A stretch of DNA of 44,693 nucleotides. Source: a virus. The notes below the pieces were generated by a model. The model was not told where the DNA came from. It did no database searches and was given only the letters and a program-made list of their open reading frames with translations. The position numbers and the translations under genes were made by a program. Location of the stretch: UHGV virus genome UHGV-0200912; one strand, written 5' to 3'. Below are positions 1,644-10,445 of this stretch, piece after piece (position 1 is the stretch's first letter; every line of letters begins with the position of its first letter).

Positions 1644-2498
1644 TCAGTCCCTCGCCCATGATGGGATTTCAGTCTGCCCGTAGTCCTTCCCTGCGAAATT
1701 TTCGGTAACTCGCACCTGTTGACGTGGTTGAGGCTTGGCGCCCTTTGGCTCAAACAGGCCCTGCCAGCCATTCGCGATGCTCTGGTTAATAATTTCTTCG
1801 GGGGAGTAACCGTTCAGCCGGCAGCGGTCCAGCAGGTTGATCGCCTGGGTGACCGTCTGCTGAGACTTGATCGGCTTTTTCAGGTCGCGACGGTATGCCA
1901 CCCATGACGACCAAATTTCTGCAGAAAGCCAGTCAGGCAACTGAACAGCTAACGCATCGAACGAAACCGCCCGGGGGGATTTAGGGGGGTTATTAATATT
2001 GTCTTTATTGTCTTTTGTATGTTTGTCTTTTGTGTTTACCTGATTCGGGTAATAGGCGTTACCTGATTCGGGTAAACTTTTCTTACCTGATTCTGGTAAT
2101 GTTACCTTTTTCAGGTAAGGGTTTTTTTCTTTACCTTTTACGGGTAAAGATGACCATTCGCTGACCGTTTTATTAATCCCGATAACACGACCGGTTTGAG
2201 TTAATATCCCCCGCTTAACCAGGACGCTTTTTGCAGCTGAGCACTTATGCGGGAGAATGCCGGTCAGCTCCGAGAGCTGCTCGTTACTGACCCAGTCAGA
2301 TTTCTTGTTGAAGCCGTATGTCTTACGCATGACAGCCATGAACACCAAAAGCTGATGCTGCGACAGACCCGCACGCATGACAGCTTCAAGGAGCTCATTG
2401 GCGATGCGCGTAAACCCATCGTCGAGATCTGCCACGCGCAGCTCCTGTAGTGCCACGACAGGCACAGGGAAATTGATTACTTCGGCAGTATTTGCCAT
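1644..2498 (-). CDS. O: replication initiator, lambda O-like, with the origin embedded in the gene
   Basis: 284 aa; sits between cII and the DnaC-like gene; iteron array inside the ORF; AGGAG RBS. Confidence 0.75.
   Translation of the reverse strand: MANTAEVINFPVPVVALQELRVADLDDGFTRIANELLEAVMRAGLSQHQLLVFMAVMRKTYGFNKKSDWVSNEQLSELTGILPHKCSAAKSVLVKRGILTQTGRVIGINKTVSEWSSLPVKGKEKNPYLKKVTLPESGKKSLPESGNAYYPNQVNTKDKHTKDNKDNINNPPKSPRAVSFDALAVQLPDWLSAEIWSSWVAYRRDLKKPIKSQQTVTQAINLLDRCRLNGYSPEEIINQSIANGWQGLFEPKGAKPQPRQQVRVTENFAGKDYGQTEIPSWARD
1985..2035. other. AT-rich DNA-unwinding region next to the iterons
   Basis: ttattaatattgtctttattgtcttttgtatgtttgtcttttgtg sits immediately downstream of the iterons in the direction of O transcription, as in ori-lambda. 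Confidence 0.6.
2036..2147. repeat. ori iterons: five 17-bp palindromic repeats TTACC-N7-GGTAA at 2036, 2059, 2083, 2102 and 2131
   Basis: direct reading; three copies are the identical TTACCTGATTCGGGTAA; spacing 19-29 bp; lies inside the O-like gene as in ori-lambda. Confidence 0.8.
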
Positions 2499-2583
2499 AA
2501 TTACTCCTGTGAATTGATCCAGTTAATTCGCGTAGAAAGCCGTTAGTGTTCGCGCACTGCGGCTTTCGCCTTTCTGTTCCCAC

Positions 2584-2805
2584 TCATGCTTCGAAGTCAC
2601 CTTTCTCTCCCGTCCTGTTAGAAATCAGGATGGCCAGCAGCAGCGACATGTTCGGCAGCAGACTTTCCCGCCAGCGACTCACCGTCGACTTATTCACTCC
2701 GGCCACTTTGGCGATATTCGTGGTTCCCAGTTCAGCTATCTGGCTGTGTAACCAGCTTTCTATCCTGCGAGCCTCCACTTTGTTGCGTGTCGTTGAACTC
2801 TCCAT
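2584..2805 (-). CDS. cII: CII-like transcriptional activator
   Basis: N-terminal and central similarity to lambda CII (NKVEARRIESWLHSQIAELGTTNIAKVAGVNKSTVSRWR versus lambda ANKRNEALRIESALLNKIAMLGTEKTAEAVGVDKSQISRWK); between cro and O. Confidence 0.8.
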   Translation of the reverse strand: MESSTTRNKVEARRIESWLHSQIAELGTTNIAKVAGVNKSTVSRWRESLLPNMSLLLAILISNRTGEKGDFEA

Positions 2806-2836
2806 TTGTGATACTTCCTCTGGTGGTGATTGGAAT

Positions 2837-2880
2837 AGCTGAATTACTCAGTCAGAACCCGCTGACTGCTCAATTCAGCT
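2837..2880 (-). promoter_or_regulatory. nested inverted repeat in the cro-cII spacer (tR1-like or nutR-like hairpin candidate)
   Basis: AGCTGAATTactCAGTCAGaacccgCTGACTGctcAATTCAGCT, 9+7 bp stems, no T-run. Confidence 0.3.
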
Positions 2881-2884
2881 TTGT

Positions 2885-3076
2885 TTAATCAGGATTTCTG
2901 TTGTGTGGGAAAGGCTTGATCTCTTCAGCCTTAATTTTTCCATCAGGCAGCGTGTTAACGAAAATCTTCCTTCCCACCCGGATAGCTTTACTAATTGCGG
3001 TCTGGTGAACGCCGATGGCATCAGCAGCTCTTGCCTGTCCAACTTCGTCAACGTATTCAGCTAAAGAAATTTTCAT
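2885..3076 (-). CDS. cro: Cro repressor
   Basis: MKISLAEYVDEVGQARAADAIGVHQTAISKAIRVGRKIFVNTLPDGKIKAEEIKPFP aligns along its length with lambda Cro; GGAG RBS; divergent from cI. Confidence 0.85.
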   Translation of the reverse strand: MKISLAEYVDEVGQARAADAIGVHQTAISKAIRVGRKIFVNTLPDGKIKAEEIKPFPHNRNPD

Positions 3077-3107
3077 GTGGTTAGCTCCTATCAACTCATG
3101 AGCAAAC

Positions 3108-3169
3108 AATACCACAAGTATTAAACATTGCAATACCTAGGGTATTTTTAAAATAAGAGCATTGGTATT
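3108..3169. promoter_or_regulatory. OR region: three 15-bp operators (3108..3122, 3132..3146, 3155..3169) overlapping divergent pR and pRM
   Basis: AATACCacaAGTATT, AATACCtagGGTATT (perfect palindrome), AAGAGCattGGTATT (weakest, next to cI as for OR3); centre spacing 24 and 23 bp as in lambda. Confidence 0.7.
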
Positions 3170-3180
3170 ACTATTTGAAA

Positions 3181-3891
3181 ATGGAAAAGAAAAAGACACT
3201 GACATCGGCTCAGATTGCTGACGCAGAAAGGCTGAAAGCCCTCTATGAAGCCAAGAAAAAAGAGCTTGGGATAACACAGCAATCAATAGCTGACATGCTA
3301 GACATATCTCAGGGTGGCGTTGGGCATTACTTGAATGGCAGGAATGCCCTTAATGCTGCCGTGGCTGCTGTTTTTGCCAGAGCCCTCCAGGTGGATGTCT
3401 CTGATTTTAGCCCCAGCCTTGCGAAAGAAATATCTGTAATGAGTGCTGCCGCTACATCGAATGCCAAGTATGTAGGCCAGTACACCCCAGGCATTAAATA
3501 CCCTGTATTAAGCAAGATTCAGGCTGGGCATTGGTCGGAAGCGTGCGAGCCGTATGCACTTAAAGATATCGATCTATGGCTCGAATCAGACGCTCACATC
3601 CAGGGGGATGCGTTCTGGTTGTTGGTTGAGGGGGAATCTATGACCGCCCCTGCCGGCCTTAGCATACCGGAGGGTACGTATGTTCTTTTCGATACAGGCA
3701 GGGAGCCAATCAACGGAAGCCTTGTTATTGCAAAGCTGTCCGAATCAAACGAGGCGACATTCAAAAAGCTGATAATCGATGGTGGCCAGAAGTACCTGAA
3801 GGGATTGAATCCACAATGGCCAATGGTACCCATCAACGGAAACTGTCGAATCATTGGGGTGGCTGTAGAAACTAAGTTGAGACTCGTGTGA
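3181..3891 (+). CDS. cI: CI repressor (HTH plus S24 LexA-like autopeptidase domain), likely leaderless start
   Basis: MEKKKTLTSAQIADAERLKALYEAKKKELGITQQSIADMLDISQGGVG matches the lambda CI N-terminus closely; the track start at 3175 is a TTG, and the ATG at 3181 matches the lambda start. Confidence 0.85.
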   Translation: MEKKKTLTSAQIADAERLKALYEAKKKELGITQQSIADMLDISQGGVGHYLNGRNALNAAVAAVFARALQVDVSDFSPSLAKEISVMSAAATSNAKYVGQYTPGIKYPVLSKIQAGHWSEACEPYALKDIDLWLESDAHIQGDAFWLLVEGESMTAPAGLSIPEGTYVLFDTGREPINGSLVIAKLSESNEATFKKLIIDGGQKYLKGLNPQWPMVPINGNCRIIGVAVETKLRLV

Positions 3892-3945
3892 TCAGCAGCA
3901 TGCCGCAGACGTACAGGAAGCATGGGTAGCTAGGCCGGAGGAATT

Positions 3946-4380
3946 ATGCAAGTTAACCTAGAAAGAATATCATTTATAACACCTTTTTCTGATAGTGAGG
4001 ACCAGACACAGCCAAAGCTTAGTTTTGAGTGCGTGAACTTCCCCGCTCAGTTTTCGATAAATTTCCGGGTGGGAATGGTAGGTTTGAAGCCAAATACTCG
4101 CTATCAACTCGGACTGTTTGTTATACCAGCTCATTTATTTATTAAAGAGGGGCAGGGATTTCAACTTCCTGACGGCACTCAGGAATCTGTTTCTGTTAAC
4201 ATTGATACTAAAGACAGCAACATGGCGACGGGTGCCAGTGGACAGGTTGTCATTACTCTAAACGAAATGCGCCTCCCTGGTAAGGGGCTGTATAGTGTGA
4301 CTGGCGTCTTACACGCCAACGATTCGATAAAAACCGTGCTTCATAAAAACGAGTCATTTTTCACTGTTGATAAATTATGA
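3946..4380 (+). CDS. hypothetical soluble protein, first gene of a cI-cotranscribed cassette in the rexA position
   Basis: strong GGAGGAATT RBS; 54 nt after the cI stop; AT-rich compared with neighbours; no known motif. Confidence 0.6.
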   Translation: MQVNLERISFITPFSDSEDQTQPKLSFECVNFPAQFSINFRVGMVGLKPNTRYQLGLFVIPAHLFIKEGQGFQLPDGTQESVSVNIDTKDSNMATGASGQVVITLNEMRLPGKGLYSVTGVLHANDSIKTVLHKNESFFTVDKL

Positions 4381-5024
4381 GTGACGATAAAGAATCAAAA
4401 AATCAAGAGAATCAGAGCGCGAGACCAAATAGCCTAAGGAGGCTGAAAGTTATCGGTGGCTCAGATTTCGATGCTGAATTTGATAATTCCTCTGAGAAGG
4501 TGCAAGATCACTTCATAACGTCGCATACTTCGGAGCGAGAAGTGGATAGGATTAGCAGAGAAGAACTTGAAGCAAGGCTGTCCGCCAATAAAGCGGAAAT
4601 GGAATCAATAGCCTCTTCAATTCGAGCAGACATGGCCTTAGCCAGAGAAAATACCAATGTCCAGTTCGCAAATCTCTCCTCCGCAATTAATTCTATCTCT
4701 TCAAAAATTGACGGGAAGATGGATAGTGTAGATGGAGAAATGAAAGCAATAACTGGTAAGTTTGATGGCATCCAGGGTCAGATAACTGGCCTGAACACAG
4801 CCATTAGCGGAATCCAGTCAGGCATATCTACGCGACTTGCAATTTTTAGCGTAATTATCGCTGTGATTGTCGCCTTGCCTGGGATTATCTCCTCATTTAA
4901 GGACTCTCCAGCTAAGTCTGATGATAATCCTTCACCCTTGATTATTCAGATGCCAGCGCAGCAACAAAATCAACAACCCGCCCCCCAAAACCAACAGAAA
5001 GCCTCGCCAAATCAGCATAAGTAG
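4377..5024 (+). CDS. coiled-coil protein with a single C-terminal TM helix and Q/P-rich tail (rexB position); candidate exclusion or abortive-infection effector
   Basis: ATGA overlap with the upstream gene; heptad-like N-terminal region; TM LAIFSVIIAVIVALPGIISSF; followed by a terminator. Confidence 0.6.
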   Translation: MSDDKESKNQENQSARPNSLRRLKVIGGSDFDAEFDNSSEKVQDHFITSHTSEREVDRISREELEARLSANKAEMESIASSIRADMALARENTNVQFANLSSAINSISSKIDGKMDSVDGEMKAITGKFDGIQGQITGLNTAISGIQSGISTRLAIFSVIIAVIVALPGIISSFKDSPAKSDDNPSPLIIQMPAQQQNQQPAPQNQQKASPNQHK

Positions 5025-5050
5025 CCCGGCCACCGCGCCGGGTTTTTATT
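5025..5050 (+). terminator. rho-independent terminator ending the cI cassette transcript (tImm-like)
   Basis: CCCGGCcaccgcGCCGGG followed by TTTTTATT. Confidence 0.7.
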
Positions 5051-5053
5051 GCC

Positions 5054-5257
5054 CTACTCTTCCCTCAACATCAGCACATCCAGTGCCAGCTCCACAGCCA
5101 GATCTGGCTGGTCCCCCAGCCACAGCACCTGAATCATCTCTATCAGCGCCTCTCTTGATGGCTCGCGCTTCTCAACCAGCATCTGCATAACCGCCATCCC
5201 GATAATCTGCGCTATCTGCGGGTGCATTTCTGCGAAAAACTCATCCTCATTCGACAT
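5054..5257 (-). CDS. small acidic hypothetical protein, divergent from pL
   Basis: 67 aa from ATG 5257 with GAGGGT RBS; the longer track ORF lacks an RBS; AT-rich promoter-like region upstream. Confidence 0.45.
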   Translation of the reverse strand: MSNEDEFFAEMHPQIAQIIGMAVMQMLVEKREPSREALIEMIQVLWLGDQPDLAVELALDVLMLREE

Positions 5258-5326
5258 GGCGCTACCCTCTTTGGCGTTTTTTTGAGCATGACAGCACTCT
5301 TTACAAAAATAAATTAACTTTAAAAT

Positions 5327-5398
5327 CATACCTTTAGTATTTTTATTAAACATTATAATACTGGCGGTATTGATATAAAATAATACCCGGAGTATTAT
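5327..5398 (+). promoter_or_regulatory. OL/pL: three operators (5327..5341, 5357..5371, 5382..5396) overlapping a strong sigma70 promoter (-35 TTGATA 5370..5375, 17-bp spacer, -10 TATTAT 5393..5398)
   Basis: cATACCtttAGTATT, AATACTggcGGTATT, AATACCcggAGTATT; same half-sites as OR. Confidence 0.7.
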
Positions 5399-5477
5399 AA
5401 TCTCATCCAAACAACAACGTTGGCGCCGGTAATAGGTAACAACGCTCCGTTAGCCGCGATAAGGCAAAGGTGAAGAG

Positions 5478-5585
5478 ATGATCCGAGAACAAGACAAGCC
5501 TGCATGGCGTAATTTTTGGTTAAAGGTCGTTCCGTTTTTGGTTGCTGTTATCGCAGTTAGCTATCCGTGCTGGGGTGGCAAATGA
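5478..5585 (+). CDS. small membrane peptide (35 aa), first gene of the pL operon
   Basis: MIREQDKPAWRNFWLKVVPFLVAVIAVSYPCWGGK; AGGTGA RBS; one TM helix; below the ORF-track size cutoff. Confidence 0.45.
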   Translation: MIREQDKPAWRNFWLKVVPFLVAVIAVSYPCWGGK

Positions 5586-5692
5586 GCAAACAAGGCATTC
5601 GTTCACTGATTTACTGCCTGCTGATCTGCGGCGTTATCTGGACAGCGTTGATTATCAAAATTCTGCACGTTACGGGGGTGTTCAATGGTTAG
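5582..5692 (+). CDS. small membrane peptide (36 aa)
   Basis: MSKQGIRSLIYCLLICGVIWTALIIKILHVTGVFNG; ATGA overlap with the upstream peptide. Confidence 0.45.
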   Translation: MSKQGIRSLIYCLLICGVIWTALIIKILHVTGVFNG

Positions 5693-5891
5693 TCATCATT
5701 ACGGGACACAGACCGTTAACCGCGGCGCCGTTCTGCCAGGGATGCTCGTTAAGCATCGGGAAAGCACCTGGACAGCATCAGCAAATAAACGCGGCCGCCT
5801 GTACCTGCATCGCGGGATTGAGCGGACTTACACAACCGACTTGCTGGTTGAAGTTTATCTGAACGGGTTGGGACAAGGTCTCAGCCGGTAA
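5685..5891 (+). CDS. small basic hypothetical protein
   Basis: 68-aa ORF overlapping the upstream stop; R/K/H-rich. Confidence 0.4.
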   Translation: MVSHHYGTQTVNRGAVLPGMLVKHRESTWTASANKRGRLYLHRGIERTYTTDLLVEVYLNGLGQGLSR

Positions 5892-5971
5892 TCGAAACGA
5901 AGAATTTAACTGAGCTATCAGGCAGCCAATACGGTGCCGGGATTCTTACAACCAAATTTCAGGAGCGAGCT

Positions 5972-6256
5972 ATGAACGCATACCGCGCATACGACGCTAT
6001 CGAAGAACGGAAATGGGCTGAACAGTCGCTCACCGAAGAAAAGCAAAAGTGGATTGACGATCGGGCGCAGGAAATTATCGACGCCCTGCCGAAAGAGCCG
6101 TCAGGCCTGTTCCGCTTCTCTGTGCCGATGGACAAAAGCCCATACGAAGGCCTCCGCAGCGATGCAGCTGGCGAGGCATATAACGATCTCATCTCGGCAG
6201 TAGCTTACGCCCAGGCGGAATACGACTGGGACCACCGCACCGGCTGCCCGTTTTAA
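5972..6256 (+). CDS. hypothetical protein
   Basis: AGGAG RBS; 94 aa. Confidence 0.5.
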   Translation: MNAYRAYDAIEERKWAEQSLTEEKQKWIDDRAQEIIDALPKEPSGLFRFSVPMDKSPYEGLRSDAAGEAYNDLISAVAYAQAEYDWDHRTGCPF

Positions 6257-6267
6257 GGAGAGAGTTA

Positions 6268-6501
6268 ATGGCCCGCAGAAATTTACTCCACAAATCGAAA
6301 TTAGCCGACTTCAAGGAGTGGCTCTCGATGAACGGAATTCAGTGGAGAGATGGGAAAGGTAGTTACCAGGTAATCCAGGTGAATACGGGATGCGGCTGGA
6401 CACCGATTTATGACAGCAGCAAAGAGCGACGCGAGCATTTCACTATTCAGGATGCTCTCAGGCCTTTGGTAAACAGATTCATCAGAGAGGCTGCAAAATG
6501 A
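6268..6501 (+). CDS. hypothetical protein
   Basis: AAGGAGAG RBS; 77 aa. Confidence 0.5.
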   Translation: MARRNLLHKSKLADFKEWLSMNGIQWRDGKGSYQVIQVNTGCGWTPIYDSSKERREHFTIQDALRPLVNRFIREAAK

Positions 6502-7001
6502 CAGATTCAAAAACACATTACCGTAAGGCTTTCGATTCTCCATACCTGAGCAGTGCCGACATCGTTGAACCCACGGTGCTGACGATCGCCCGGGCAACGT
6601 TAGAAAGCGACAAAACCAAAAAAACTAAAGACGTTTTTAACACCGCTTATTTTGAGGAGAGCGAGTTGCGCCCTGGCGAAAAGCTTAAGCCAATGATCCT
6701 GAATGCCACCAACAGCAAGATGCTGAAAAGCATTACCGGATCGCCATTCCTTGAGGATTGGGTCGGCGTGAAAGTCACTGTTTACGTCGATAAAAATGTC
6801 AGGTTCGGAAAGGAATCGGTTGAAGGTCTCCGCTTAAGCCCAGCGCGCGTTTCAAAACCTGTGCTTTCGCCGGAAAAAACGCAGGCATGGAATAACGCTA
6901 AGGCCGCCTTCAAGCGCGATGGCAACCTGGATGCAGTGCTGGCGAGAATGGACATTTCTCCAGAGCATCGCCGCCAACTGGAACAGGAGTGCTCAGCATG
7001 A
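6498..7001 (+). CDS. hypothetical protein upstream of the exonuclease (possible annealing or ssDNA-binding partner)
   Basis: 167 aa; ATGA-type overlap; its position matches bet/recT in the lambda pL operon but it is too short for the usual RecT or Red-beta. Confidence 0.4.
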   Translation: MTDSKTHYRKAFDSPYLSSADIVEPTVLTIARATLESDKTKKTKDVFNTAYFEESELRPGEKLKPMILNATNSKMLKSITGSPFLEDWVGVKVTVYVDKNVRFGKESVEGLRLSPARVSKPVLSPEKTQAWNNAKAAFKRDGNLDAVLARMDISPEHRRQLEQECSA

Positions 7002-7621
7002 TCTGGCATGACGTCGAGCAAAACGGGGAAGAGTGGGATGCTCTTCGCCTTGGGAAGGCTACCGCTTCAAACTTCGGCTTGATTATGGCTAACGATGGCA
7101 AGGCGTTTGGTGAGCCAGCCAAGCGTTATGCGCTTCAGTTAGCTCTTGAGCAGATTAAAGGGTGCAAGTCTGAGTTTGGCTTCACAAACGACCATATGGA
7201 GCGCGGCCACGAACAGGAGCCAATCGCTCGCATGCTGTACGAAGAGATGAACTTCGTCGACGTGGATAACGGCGGTTTCTTTGATCACGAAACGTATGGG
7301 GATAGTCCAGACGGACTCGTTGGCCGGGACGGGTTGGTTGAGATTAAGTCGGTAATTGCCGCCACTCACTACGCCACCCTCACCCGCGGCGCCTTCGATC
7401 CGGCATATAGATGGCAACTAATCGGCCACCTTGATTGCTCTGGCCGGGATTGGGTTGACTTCATCAGCTACTGCTCTGATTTCCCTGAAGGAAAGCAACT
7501 CATTGTTTACCGTCTGACAGCCGCTGAGTGCCAATCAGAAATAGGCCGCCTTCGCGCGAGAAGGAATGAGTTCCTCTCCCTTGTGGCAGAGACTAAGCGA
7601 ATGATACTGGAGATCGAATGA
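6989..7621 (+). CDS. YqaJ/lambda-Exo family recombination exonuclease (PD-(D/E)XK)
   Basis: WHDVEQNGEEWDALRLGKATASNFG resembles the lambda Exo/YqaJ N-terminal motif; 210 aa. Confidence 0.7.
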   Translation: MLSMIWHDVEQNGEEWDALRLGKATASNFGLIMANDGKAFGEPAKRYALQLALEQIKGCKSEFGFTNDHMERGHEQEPIARMLYEEMNFVDVDNGGFFDHETYGDSPDGLVGRDGLVEIKSVIAATHYATLTRGAFDPAYRWQLIGHLDCSGRDWVDFISYCSDFPEGKQLIVYRLTAAECQSEIGRLRARRNEFLSLVAETKRMILEIE

Positions 7622-7776
7622 AACATTACCGCGACGCCATAACCGTAGGAAAAGTGAAGTGCATGTACTCCGTCCTTCATCGTGGCTGGCTAATGCCATC
7701 TGGTGAAGTGGTAAGAAACCCGTTAAAGGCTCAGAGGCTGGCTGAAGAGCTGGACACGAAAAGAGGTGCGCAATGA
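7618..7776 (+). CDS. small hypothetical protein (52 aa), translationally coupled on both sides
   Basis: ATG 7618 overlaps the exonuclease TGA; its TGA overlaps the methylase ATG 7773; not in the ORF track. Confidence 0.4.
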   Translation: MKHYRDAITVGKVKCMYSVLHRGWLMPSGEVVRNPLKAQRLAEELDTKRGAQ

Positions 7777-8300
7777 CTGACTACGGCGGATCGAAAACTC
7801 CAAAAAATGAACGTGACTACTGGCAAACGCCGATTGAAATTTTCAACGCGCTCGACCGCGAGTTTGGCTTCTGGCTGGATGCTGCAGCCTCTGAGAGTAA
7901 CGCGCTATGCGCTCACTATCTCACTGAGCTGGATGACTCGCTGAATAGCGAATGGACGTCATACGGGGCGATATGGTGTAACCCGCCCTATTCCGATATC
8001 GGTCCATGGGTGGAAAAAGCTGCTGAACAATCCCGGGCGCAGTCTCAGGCCGTAGTGATGCTGTTACCTGCTGACATCTCTACTAGCTGGTTTATTTCAG
8101 CCATGCAATCAGCTGATGAACTCAGGCTGATAACCGGCGGCCGTGTTCAGTTTGTTCCGGCATCCGTTACAGGAAAGCGCCAGAGCAACCCCAAAGGCTC
8201 GCTCCTGTTTATCTGGCGCCCGTACATCACCCCGCGACACATCATCACGACCGTATCGCTGGCTGAGTTAAAGCGGATCGGAAATCTGGAGGCAGCATGA
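7773..8300 (+). CDS. phage-type DNA N6-adenine methyltransferase (Dam-like)
   Basis: NPPY motif (CNPPYSDIGPW); WQTP...FWLDAAA N-terminal motif; 175 aa. Confidence 0.8.
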   Translation: MTDYGGSKTPKNERDYWQTPIEIFNALDREFGFWLDAAASESNALCAHYLTELDDSLNSEWTSYGAIWCNPPYSDIGPWVEKAAEQSRAQSQAVVMLLPADISTSWFISAMQSADELRLITGGRVQFVPASVTGKRQSNPKGSLLFIWRPYITPRHIITTVSLAELKRIGNLEAA

Positions 8301-8518
8301 CGCCTGAAGAAAAAGAAAACGCTCTCCGCGCCCAGGCTCGTCGCTGCGCAGAAGAGATAACCAAAGCGATGAGCGTAAAGCCTAAACCGAAGTGGAACGC
8401 TGTATGCCCCCCCATCCTTCGCAAGCACTACGAGAAGGTAAAGCCGATGGGTGTCAGCCTGGTGAAATTTGTCAGTGTTATTGGCCGCATGAATGGGCGG
8501 TATGGAGTGGAATCATGA
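8297..8518 (+). CDS. hypothetical protein
   Basis: ATGA overlaps at both ends. Confidence 0.45.
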   Translation: MTPEEKENALRAQARRCAEEITKAMSVKPKPKWNAVCPPILRKHYEKVKPMGVSLVKFVSVIGRMNGRYGVES

Positions 8519-9192
8519 AAGAACGCGGAATGATATTCAACGGGGAGATGGTGCGCGCCATCCTCGACGGTCGGAAGATGCAGACCCGGCGGCCTATCAA
8601 ATGGAAACAGACTCGGTTCACTGAAATTGGTGAGCGTGAAGACGGTAGCAAATGGCCGTGGAGCGAAGATGCAGAGCATGCTTTCGATTTCTGGCATCCA
8701 TGTCCGTTCGGTTCCGTCGGCGATCGTATCTGGGTGCGAGAGACGTTTCAGGGGCCGCTATTCGATTTCGACCTTATGGATAGCTATTGCAAAGACTCAA
8801 CTCCTTTTGAGAAGTCAGAGTTTTGTGTTTACAAGGCTGACGGCGTGCCTGCACCAGAGTTTTACGATGCAGATGATGAACTGCATTGCTGCTGGCGACC
8901 ATCTATCCATATGCCGCGCTGGGCCAGCCGCATTCTGCTGGAAATCACCGACGTGCGGGTTGAGCGGCTGAACGCTATCAGCGAGGAAGATGCCACTGCC
9001 GAAGGCGTTCCGCCTGCAGGGAGTTTGCTTCCTGATTACCCGGGAACATTCCTGACTCCGAAAGGTGATTTCGCAACGGCCAAGGTTGCATTCCAGCGTC
9101 TGTGGGAATCCATCTACGGCGAAGAAAGCTGGAATGCTAATCCCTGGGTTTGGGTAATTTCTTTTGAGCGCATTGAAGGCGGTGCAGCATGA
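8515..9192 (+). CDS. ASCH (PUA-like) domain protein
   Basis: N-terminal MIFNGEMVRAILDGRKMQTRR is the hallmark ASCH motif; start at 8515 by ATGA overlap rather than the longer track ORF. Confidence 0.6.
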   Translation: MKERGMIFNGEMVRAILDGRKMQTRRPIKWKQTRFTEIGEREDGSKWPWSEDAEHAFDFWHPCPFGSVGDRIWVRETFQGPLFDFDLMDSYCKDSTPFEKSEFCVYKADGVPAPEFYDADDELHCCWRPSIHMPRWASRILLEITDVRVERLNAISEEDATAEGVPPAGSLLPDYPGTFLTPKGDFATAKVAFQRLWESIYGEESWNANPWVWVISFERIEGGAA

Positions 9193-9893
9193 GCTTCTTT
9201 GAAATCGACTCCCGATTTTTGATCGATACAGCATTTCACCGCCTGGAAATCATCCGTGATGATGGCCTGTATCGACACCTGCGTATGCAGCAGCCCGAAA
9301 CGTCCTGTTATTACTACGACGTTATCACTTGGCCTGGTTACTTGACCGTAACCGGCGACATGGGAACTTGGACATTCAGTCGCATCGCGGACATGTTCGA
9401 CTTTTTTGGCGCCTGGGAAGGTGGAATCAATACCCATTATTGGGCTGAAAAGCTGGAGGCTGGCGCGGGATGTTCGGCACGAGAAATGCTGGCAAAAGAG
9501 TATGACCACGACGCGTTCTGCAAAAGCCTGAAAGAGTCTCTGAGTGATTACCTGAAGGACGATGAAGATGCTGAGACAGAAGAGGATGAAGACTGGGACG
9601 ACGATGACGATACACCGGATAGCGACAAAGCAGTGGTACGCGAAATCGTCCGCGACTTGTGCCGAGCTGGCTTCAATAACGAATGGGAGGCTTATCAGGC
9701 TGTTTATGACGCTGATTGGCCAGCTGGTTGGAGCGCCTGGGATGTCTGCGAAGGCCTGACATTTAAAACGTATACCAGCCATTTCCGATGGATTCTGTTC
9801 GCCATCACATGGGCAATCAGCAAATACCACAACGCGAAGATTGTTGATAAAGCGATGGCTACGTTTTTGGCCGTTAAGGGAGTTTCAGCATGA
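9189..9893 (+). CDS. hypothetical protein with a poly-acidic tract (DEDAETEEDEDWDDDDDTPDSD)
   Basis: 234 aa; ATGA overlap at start. Confidence 0.5.
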   Translation: MSFFEIDSRFLIDTAFHRLEIIRDDGLYRHLRMQQPETSCYYYDVITWPGYLTVTGDMGTWTFSRIADMFDFFGAWEGGINTHYWAEKLEAGAGCSAREMLAKEYDHDAFCKSLKESLSDYLKDDEDAETEEDEDWDDDDDTPDSDKAVVREIVRDLCRAGFNNEWEAYQAVYDADWPAGWSAWDVCEGLTFKTYTSHFRWILFAITWAISKYHNAKIVDKAMATFLAVKGVSA

Positions 9894-10108
9894 GCGCAGA
9901 AATCATCGTTCAGGCCAACGAGCTGGCAGAGCGCCGGCTGGAAATGACCATCCAGAGCATGCGGATCAACCATGCGGCAGTTTCAGCTACTCACTGCCGC
10001 GACTGCGGGGAAGAGATACCAGAACCGCGCCGGGAAGCTGTGGCGGGCTGTCAGCGCTGTGCTGACTGTCAGGAAGAGTTTGAAGAACGTGGTAAGCATC
10101 GGAGGTGA
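9890..10108 (+). CDS. TraR/DksA-family C4 zinc-finger protein
   Basis: CRDCGEEIP...CQRCADCQ, two CxxC pairs; 72 aa. Confidence 0.65.
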   Translation: MSAEIIVQANELAERRLEMTIQSMRINHAAVSATHCRDCGEEIPEPRREAVAGCQRCADCQEEFEERGKHRR

Positions 10109-10110
10109 TA

Positions 10111-10445
10111 TGGCATCTGACAAACCGATAACAGCACAGCAGGCCGCCGATTTGCTCATCGTGTCGGCGCGGGTGATCTACCGCCTGATTGAGTCTGGGG
10201 AGCTCGCTGGCCGCAAGGTCGGCAACAAGTACAGAACGACCGAAGCAGCTTGTATTGCATATTTGAAAACCCCGCGCGATCCTGTCATCGCGAACGCGGG
10301 TGAACATAAAGGAGAAGTTTTATGTCAATCACCCTCAGGGGCGGCGTGTGGCACTGTCATTTCTTTACGCCGTCAGGAAAAAGAGTTAGGCGATCTCTTG
10401 GCACGGGGGACAAAAAGCAGGCTCAGGAGCTCCACGACAAGCTGA
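10111..10445 (+). CDS. xis: excisionase-like HTH DNA-binding protein overlapping the int start
   Basis: GGAGGTG RBS; [32 protein letters not shown] helix-turn-helix; overlaps int by about 120 nt. Confidence 0.55.

Follow-up and report, generated by a model that had tools for sequence, protein, structure and literature searches.

Paired genes for predicted membrane peptides at the head of the pL operon in a family of lambda-like phages

The immunity region and the pL leader

The DNA considered here (the window, 44,693 nucleotides) is the complete genome of a lambda-like siphophage whose nearest relatives are temperate phages of Klebsiella. The features that matter to the argument are collected in Table 1. 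Among them are two very short genes, here called mini1 and mini2, that come directly after the leftward early promoter.

Table 1. Features of the immunity region and of the beginning of the early-left operon
Feature	Position	Strand	Remarks
Cro		minus	divergent from cI; PF09048
CII		minus	divergent from cI; PF05269, 48.8 bits
cI-type repressor	3175-3891	+	HTH_3 and Peptidase_S24 domains
Two genes of unknown function after cI, in the rexAB position	3946-5024	+	
Terminator-like hairpin	5023-5044		after the rexAB-position gene pair
oL operator cluster	5327-5396		AATAC-N5-GTATT at 5357-5371 and 5382-5396, and at 5327-5341 with one mismatch
pL, promoter-like site TTGATA-17-TATTAT	5370-5398	+	10 of 12 consensus matches; overlapped by two operators
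Leader, about 72 nt, free of ORFs	5405-5477	+	Shine-Dalgarno AGGTGA at 5468-5473; the start, 5405, is an inferred coordinate, not a mapped transcription start
mini1, predicted single-helix membrane peptide, 35 aa	5478-5585	+	ATG start; MIREQDKPAWRNFWLKVVPFLVAVIAVSYPCWGGK
mini2, predicted single-helix membrane peptide, 36 aa	5582-5692	+	MSKQGIRSLIYCLLICGVIWTALIIKILHVTGVFNG
KilR-type division inhibitor gene, 68 aa	5685-5891	+	starts 8 nt before the mini2 stop
GamL host-nuclease inhibitor, next gene	5972-6256	+	match to NF033500 with 141.6 bits (cut-off 40)

The 15-bp palindrome AATAC-N5-GTATT is matched five times in the window, where 0.81 matches would be expected, and outside the oL cluster it occurs only between cro and cI (3108 and 3132). 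I read these copies as the operators oL and, between cro and cI, oR. The oL operators cover the TTGATA-17-TATTAT site, and pL should therefore be controlled by the repressor. Where a relative has a different immunity region, its DNA becomes similar to that of the window right at the -10 hexamer of this site. The first-pass annotation had taken the two peptides to be the first genes of the pL operon, behind a good ribosome-binding site 80 nt from the promoter, and so they are: the ATG of mini1 lies 80 nt past the -10 hexamer and 4 nt beyond AGGTGA, and no ORF falls between it and the operator-covered promoter. Relatives vary in this interval. A minority have a different sequence ahead of mini1, about 46 loci carrying the leader GCATGAGATTAATTTTCGAGGTACTGAAGA, and at one locus (L257) a 53-aa gene at 1104-1265 precedes mini1, so that the pair is not the first cistron there.

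In phages of the lambda N type, the first pL gene encodes an arginine-rich protein and the leader carries nut boxA and boxB. That arrangement was not found in the window. None of the 13 early-left ORFs scanned (5478-10445) belongs to an N-like family, in agreement with the earlier failure to identify an antiterminator. The leader has no significant fold or hairpin (z -0.67). No Rfam family appears at E ≤ 1 in 2400-8000, leader included, nor did that scan find a nut or put RNA family, of which Rfam may hold none. A nut- or put-like element in the leader was considered and set aside in view of the blank Rfam scan, the fold score and a conservation no better than that of mini1. Elsewhere, a strong, interrupted 17-bp hairpin lies on the minus strand in the cro-cII interval of the pR transcript (2838-2879; -25.6 kcal/mol, z -4.0). 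No U-tract follows, and in this phage, whose N is not recognisable, the hairpin could serve as a tR1-like or regulatory element.

Two neighbours of pL deserve mention. On the minus strand a 70-aa gene of unknown function (phrog_3946, 5054-5266) is transcribed away from pL, and its promoter-like site, TTTATA-16-TATAAT at 5379-5352, sits within the oL operators, so that the repressor may govern transcription either way. The same place is taken in HK225 by gp41 and in an E. coli prophage by a pseudogene. The pair of genes in the rexAB position belong to phrog_5893 (144 aa) and phrog_5820 (215 aa, coiled-coil-like, with a hydrophobic C-terminal segment). A scan with defence models matched neither, bar one faint ZorA-like hit, and they are candidates for an exclusion system expressed in lysogens.

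Coding evidence and predicted topology of mini1 and mini2

The two frames proved to be as the first-pass annotation had them, 35 and 36 codons in tandem, joined by an ATGA in which the ATG of mini2 (5582-5584) overlaps the TGA of mini1 (5583-5585). The Shine-Dalgarno sequence of mini2, GGGGTGG (5572-5578), is located within mini1, and that of the KilR-type gene, GGGGGTG (5674-5680), within mini2. Are frames so short truly genes? They were followed through 29 GenBank phage records with mini2, all from Klebsiella, through IMG/VR (362-365 loci with mini2, 244 with mini1), and through representative genomes and complete E. coli genomes, of which 60 of 5,426 were positive.

The frame of mini2 is open at exactly 36 codons in all 86 distinct DNAs. 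That of mini1 is open in 73 of 75, at 35, 36 or 38 codons, its length varying by whole codons. Amongst closely related pairs, pN/pS in frame is 0.33 for mini2 and 0.35 for mini1, as against 0.7-1.2 off frame overall and 1.1-1.2 off frame for mini1. Stops interrupt the alternative frames in a large fraction of the DNAs, five out of five for mini1 and four out of five for mini2, where the remaining one is the mostly open 106-aa frame discussed below. Invariant residues are spelled with two to six different codons (four each for R3 and V17 of mini1, six for V33 of mini2, three each for its G5 and S8), the hydrophobic core is retained in all mini1 alleles, which go down to 34-51% identity, and the Shine-Dalgarno motifs before all three starts are kept despite unrelated flanking sequence. 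I consider it very probable that mini1 and mini2 are real genes for membrane peptides at the head of pL.

Then there is the junction itself. The order mini1-ATGA-mini2 holds for 138 of the 152 distinct contexts of mini1. About ten others have a gene of 71-81 aa, with a phrog_2201-like C-terminal domain, set between mini1 and mini2 and joined to each by an ATGA, which shows that the 4-nt junction is a module boundary. An insertion so exact means that mini1 and mini2 are independent cistrons, not one frameshifted gene. (Loci with the insert include L004, L008, L027-L029, L036, L057 and L061; the insert is in the stretch of some 210-240 nt that comes before mini2.)

Several other ways of reading the DNA can be dismissed. 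Fused proteins of 70-71 aa do occur, but only rarely, set against split copies that number in the hundreds, and by my own application of the positive-inside rule a fusion would put a positively charged loop in the periplasm. The fused database entries include P0077, P0017, P0018, P0011 and P0012; compared with the split sequences, they point to a change of 1 nt at the GGCAAATGAGC junction. They are best taken as mutants or as sequencing errors, perhaps in a homopolymer; P0077 occurs on 15 contigs, among them one of 5.4 Mb. A start for mini2 at GTG 5567, giving 41 aa, is used in many NCBI PGAP-type records, but the codons upstream vary with the mini1 allele and what is conserved is the ATG with its Shine-Dalgarno sequence. 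Finally, the first-pass annotation had allowed that the expressed product might be a rival 106-aa ORF (5542-5862). That frame matches no family, has a pN/pS of 1.1-1.4, is long only in loci that carry the KilR-type gene, and overlaps that gene's strong Kil match out of frame. It can be discarded.

What sort of peptides are these? The description of each as one hydrophobic helix with charged flanks is borne out by AlphaFold, which predicts a single helix for mini1 (H9-31, pLDDT 78) and for mini2 (H3-31, pLDDT 88), and by hydrophobic cores with Kyte-Doolittle means of 2.1 and 2.5 in the two window peptides. Over all alleles the core means are 1.4-2.5 for mini1 and 2.0-3.1 for mini2. The N-terminus of mini2 has a net charge of +2, that of mini1 contains two to four K/R across alleles, and a count by hand gives the mini1 of the window +2 over residues 1-16. 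Both peptides thus have the hydrophobic helix of about 20 residues and the flanking charges of single-pass small membrane proteins. Since their N-terminal tails are positively charged and their C-termini near neutral, both most likely sit in the inner membrane with their N-termini inside, and the N-terminus of mini1 is probably cytoplasmic.

There is also a hint of contact between the two, in the form of a charge swap. K at residue 30 of mini1 is found only with E at residue 26 of mini2, and E or D at residue 30 is found mostly with K26. The counts, 18:3 against 0:6, give a Fisher p of 3e-4 if shared descent is ignored, and there are exceptions. The helices may lie side by side, joined by a salt bridge near their outer ends.

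The gene downstream of the pair

The first-pass annotation had likened the peptides to Kil, DicB and Hok. The analogy finds no support: neither peptide matches anything in Pfam, PHROGs or NCBIfam, and the real Kil is the next gene. The product of 5685-5891 matches phrog_294 (E 5e-34), is 39% identical to Rac KilR and also hits the "FtsZ inhibitor" model PRK11354 of NCBIfam at E 6e-19, although its 67.8 bits fall short of the curated cut-off, 92. By these matches it is the phage's actual Kil, a KilR homologue that was previously overlooked.

The stop codon of mini2 is always overlapped, by 8 nt, by one of three unrelated families (160 distinct contexts): KilR-type genes in about 62 contexts, phrog_3722 (64 aa, function unknown) in about 74, and proteins of 93-97 aa with a Lambda_Kil domain (PF06301, 40.5 bits) in about 24. 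The score quoted is that of the downstream gene of ST405-OXA48phi1.2; lambda Kil itself scores 72.4 bits. Two of the three, then, are families of division inhibitors. The remaining one, phrog_3722 (64-66 aa), stands in place of Kil in about half of the relatives, for example at L010, L024, L255 (1492-1692) and L256 (1486-1686), and its position suggests that it could be another factor of host division or takeover.

Most of the possible combinations of mini1, mini2 and downstream alleles are found, though the E26-type allele of mini2 is seen only with the HEV-type mini1. Alleles that combine this freely indicate modules that can be exchanged and that meet where a stop codon overlaps a start. 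None of the downstream families is confined to loci with the pair; without it there are KilR-type genes in HK225 and Rac, Lambda_Kil in lambda, and phrog_3722 in Salmonella SW-37 and Citrobacter Omnitron. No hidden peptide ORF is present upstream of the Kil of HK225. The independent existence of the downstream families speaks against an obligate partnership with Kil.

Are there relatives elsewhere? Pfam, PHROGs, NCBIfam and PADLOC hold nothing above noise for mini1 or mini2; weak matches to UL2, phrog_31975 and phrog_10484 are put down to chance resemblance of hydrophobic segments. A profile search of 1.84 billion representative proteins gave only 17 matches, all close relatives, which with the lack of a family model indicates a narrow, uncharacterised family. 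A literature search turned up no publication about the two. The databases, however, already contain both, annotated as hypothetical. In the Klebsiella phages GZ7 and Mulock both ORFs are annotated as CDS, "membrane protein" or "hypothetical protein", NCBI has many "hypothetical protein" entries for both, and RefSeq (PGAP) leaves out mini1 in an E. coli prophage. The pair is neither a new class of system nor startling. The most useful new lead is the link to the slot of cIII, to which I now turn.

The cIII slot and what the pair might do

In lambda, P22 and ES18, cIII lies directly upstream of kil, and in lambda and P22 it overlaps kil (PMC3961180). The overlapping lambda genes have no known functional link. 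The gene orders are easily compared: cIII-kil-gam in lambda, c3-kil-arf-erf in P22, mini1-mini2-kil-gamL in the window. Like lambda cIII and P22 c3 (PF02061), the pair is small (cIII has about 50 aa), is driven by pL, stands directly upstream of kil with gam or recombination genes after it, and is found in phages that encode CII. Homologues of cIII were found in 364 phage records, with kil annotated under the match in most of those listed; organism names accompany part of these matches, and a few Klebsiella phages with cIII may be among them. A custom cIII HMM was built from the lambda, P22 and Edno5 proteins and recovers all three; run at maximum sensitivity over every frame of the window and of about 240 related loci, it gave no match. 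The pair is present in each of the 21 Klebsiella phages that have the CII of the window; conversely, 9 of the 29 GenBank phages with mini2 have no match to this CII, and at least one of these is annotated with a different "CII".

Transcribed from a pL under cI repression, the pair should be off in a lysogen and expressed immediately upon infection or induction, by a chain of coupled translation from mini1 to mini2 to KilR in which the end of each upstream gene also encodes the next ribosome-binding site. As to function, I propose, tentatively and with a probability of about three in ten, that the pair takes over the part of cIII from within the membrane, with FtsH/HflKC as its target. The two helices would lie side by side in the inner membrane and there bind the membrane protease FtsH or the cage of HflK and HflC. 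Such binding would slow the degradation of the phage's CII activator, and slower degradation would tune the decision between lysis and lysogeny, the job that soluble cIII does in lambda and P22. There is precedent in MgtR and MgtS, small transmembrane peptides that modulate FtsH-dependent proteolysis (PMC12648545). Together with AcrZ and KdpF they resemble mini1 and mini2 in size (about 30-50 aa) and in having a single transmembrane helix; unlike them, all four are encoded by chromosomal stress-response genes, unpaired and non-homologous, not by early genes of a phage.

Several considerations weaken this proposal. The likeness to cIII is one of position only, and the sharing of a slot is weak evidence. 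There is no similarity in sequence or predicted structure: in Pfam, including PF02061 with its core of a conserved amphipathic-helix region, mini1 and mini2 have no match at E ≤ 0.1. And there are two peptides here, both predicted to cross the membrane, where lambda and P22 have one soluble protein. The cIII protein acts on FtsH from the cytoplasmic side, by means of a soluble amphipathic helix. Even so, position and gene content point to the cIII slot at least as much as to the analogy with Kil or toxins.

An alternative view takes its cue from the downstream gene. The pair might be an accessory of Kil that tethers, gates or times the division inhibitor at the inner membrane, where FtsZ, ZipA, FtsA and MreB act. 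Mini2 is, after all, always coupled by the same 8-nt overlap to one of three unrelated genes, two of them from division-inhibitor families. KilR, a cytoplasmic inhibitor of FtsZ and MreB, acts on these where they are associated with the membrane (PMC12482147), and lambda Kil needs the membrane protein ZipA (PMC3961180). But Rac KilR (PMC12482147) and lambda Kil (PMC3961180) each show activity when expressed by themselves, and all three downstream families do without the pair in other phages, so I regard this as rather unlikely. Less likely still is a stronger form of the idea, in which mini1 and mini2 form a parallel heterodimer that serves as a portable inner-membrane adaptor or gate for phage division inhibitors. 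If true, it would explain why the same 8-nt overlap leads to three unrelated genes, and phrog_3722 would be a third, unrecognised division-inhibitor family. The peptides themselves match neither Kil profile, that of lambda Kil (PF06301) or that of KilR (PRK11354). They share with Rac KilR and lambda Kil that they are small early-left products of lambdoid phages in the same chain of coupled genes, and differ in that the KilR homologue is a separate, third gene. Lambda Kil, which is unrelated to KilR, has no predicted transmembrane segment (PMC3961180). YdaG and YdaF, the two small first genes of the early-left operon of Rac, were also considered as analogues and rejected, neither being hydrophobic.

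Could the peptides instead act against something other than division? Early T4 Imm and HK97 gp15, the latter from a prophage, are exclusion proteins that block the entry of DNA, and the pair might likewise enter the inner membrane and shut out later phages. Predicted membrane location and immediate-early expression fit, as does the free reassortment between phages of several deeply diverged alleles, which is what an arms race would give, and so does the narrow host range (Klebsiella, Raoultella and that small set of E. coli genomes). Yet with pL repressed a lysogen would go unprotected, a better position for the task belongs to the genes that follow cI in the rexAB slot, and known models of defence and exclusion do not match; I find this improbable. 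The toxin-like host shut-off of the first-pass annotation, in which the peptides depolarise or permeabilise the membrane, is a little more doubtful again. Short hydrophobic helices with charged flanks do resemble Hok/Gef and other type I toxins (PMC12648545). But neither peptide matches Hok/Gef or any other toxin family in Pfam, NCBIfam or PHROGs, and the region 5478-5700 has no Rfam RNA match and, on the minus strand, no consensus antisense promoter. Type I toxins are made from a stable mRNA, the pair from a repressor-controlled operon promoter, which in a lysogen is shut, so the pair cannot be a resident toxin-antitoxin module, and killing the host at the start of infection would harm the phage. 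It is too much to expect, finally, that the peptides are irrelevant and that only their translation counts, keeping ribosomes behind RNA polymerase as a guard against Rho and delivering them to kil. The pair does come first in an operon with no N-like gene, and its chain of overlapping stop and start codons is unbroken, each Shine-Dalgarno sequence lying within the preceding ORF. Still, the amino-acid sequence is under purifying selection (pN/pS 0.33-0.35), the invariant residues are spelled with several codons, and hydrophobicity persists across alleles that are only 34-50% identical, and I give the idea hardly any credence.

Annotation routinely overlooks small membrane proteins or labels them "hypothetical", and mini1 often goes unannotated. 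This pair is the first thing made on induction of a common family of prophages in Klebsiella, Raoultella and some E. coli, and it stands at the point where a lambda-like phage chooses lysis or lysogeny and stops its host from dividing. A partnership with Kil, if true, would link cytoplasmic division inhibitors to the membrane. The replacement of cIII, if true, would be a new, membrane-embedded means of controlling FtsH, and would offer a handle on lysogeny in the phages of a major hospital pathogen.
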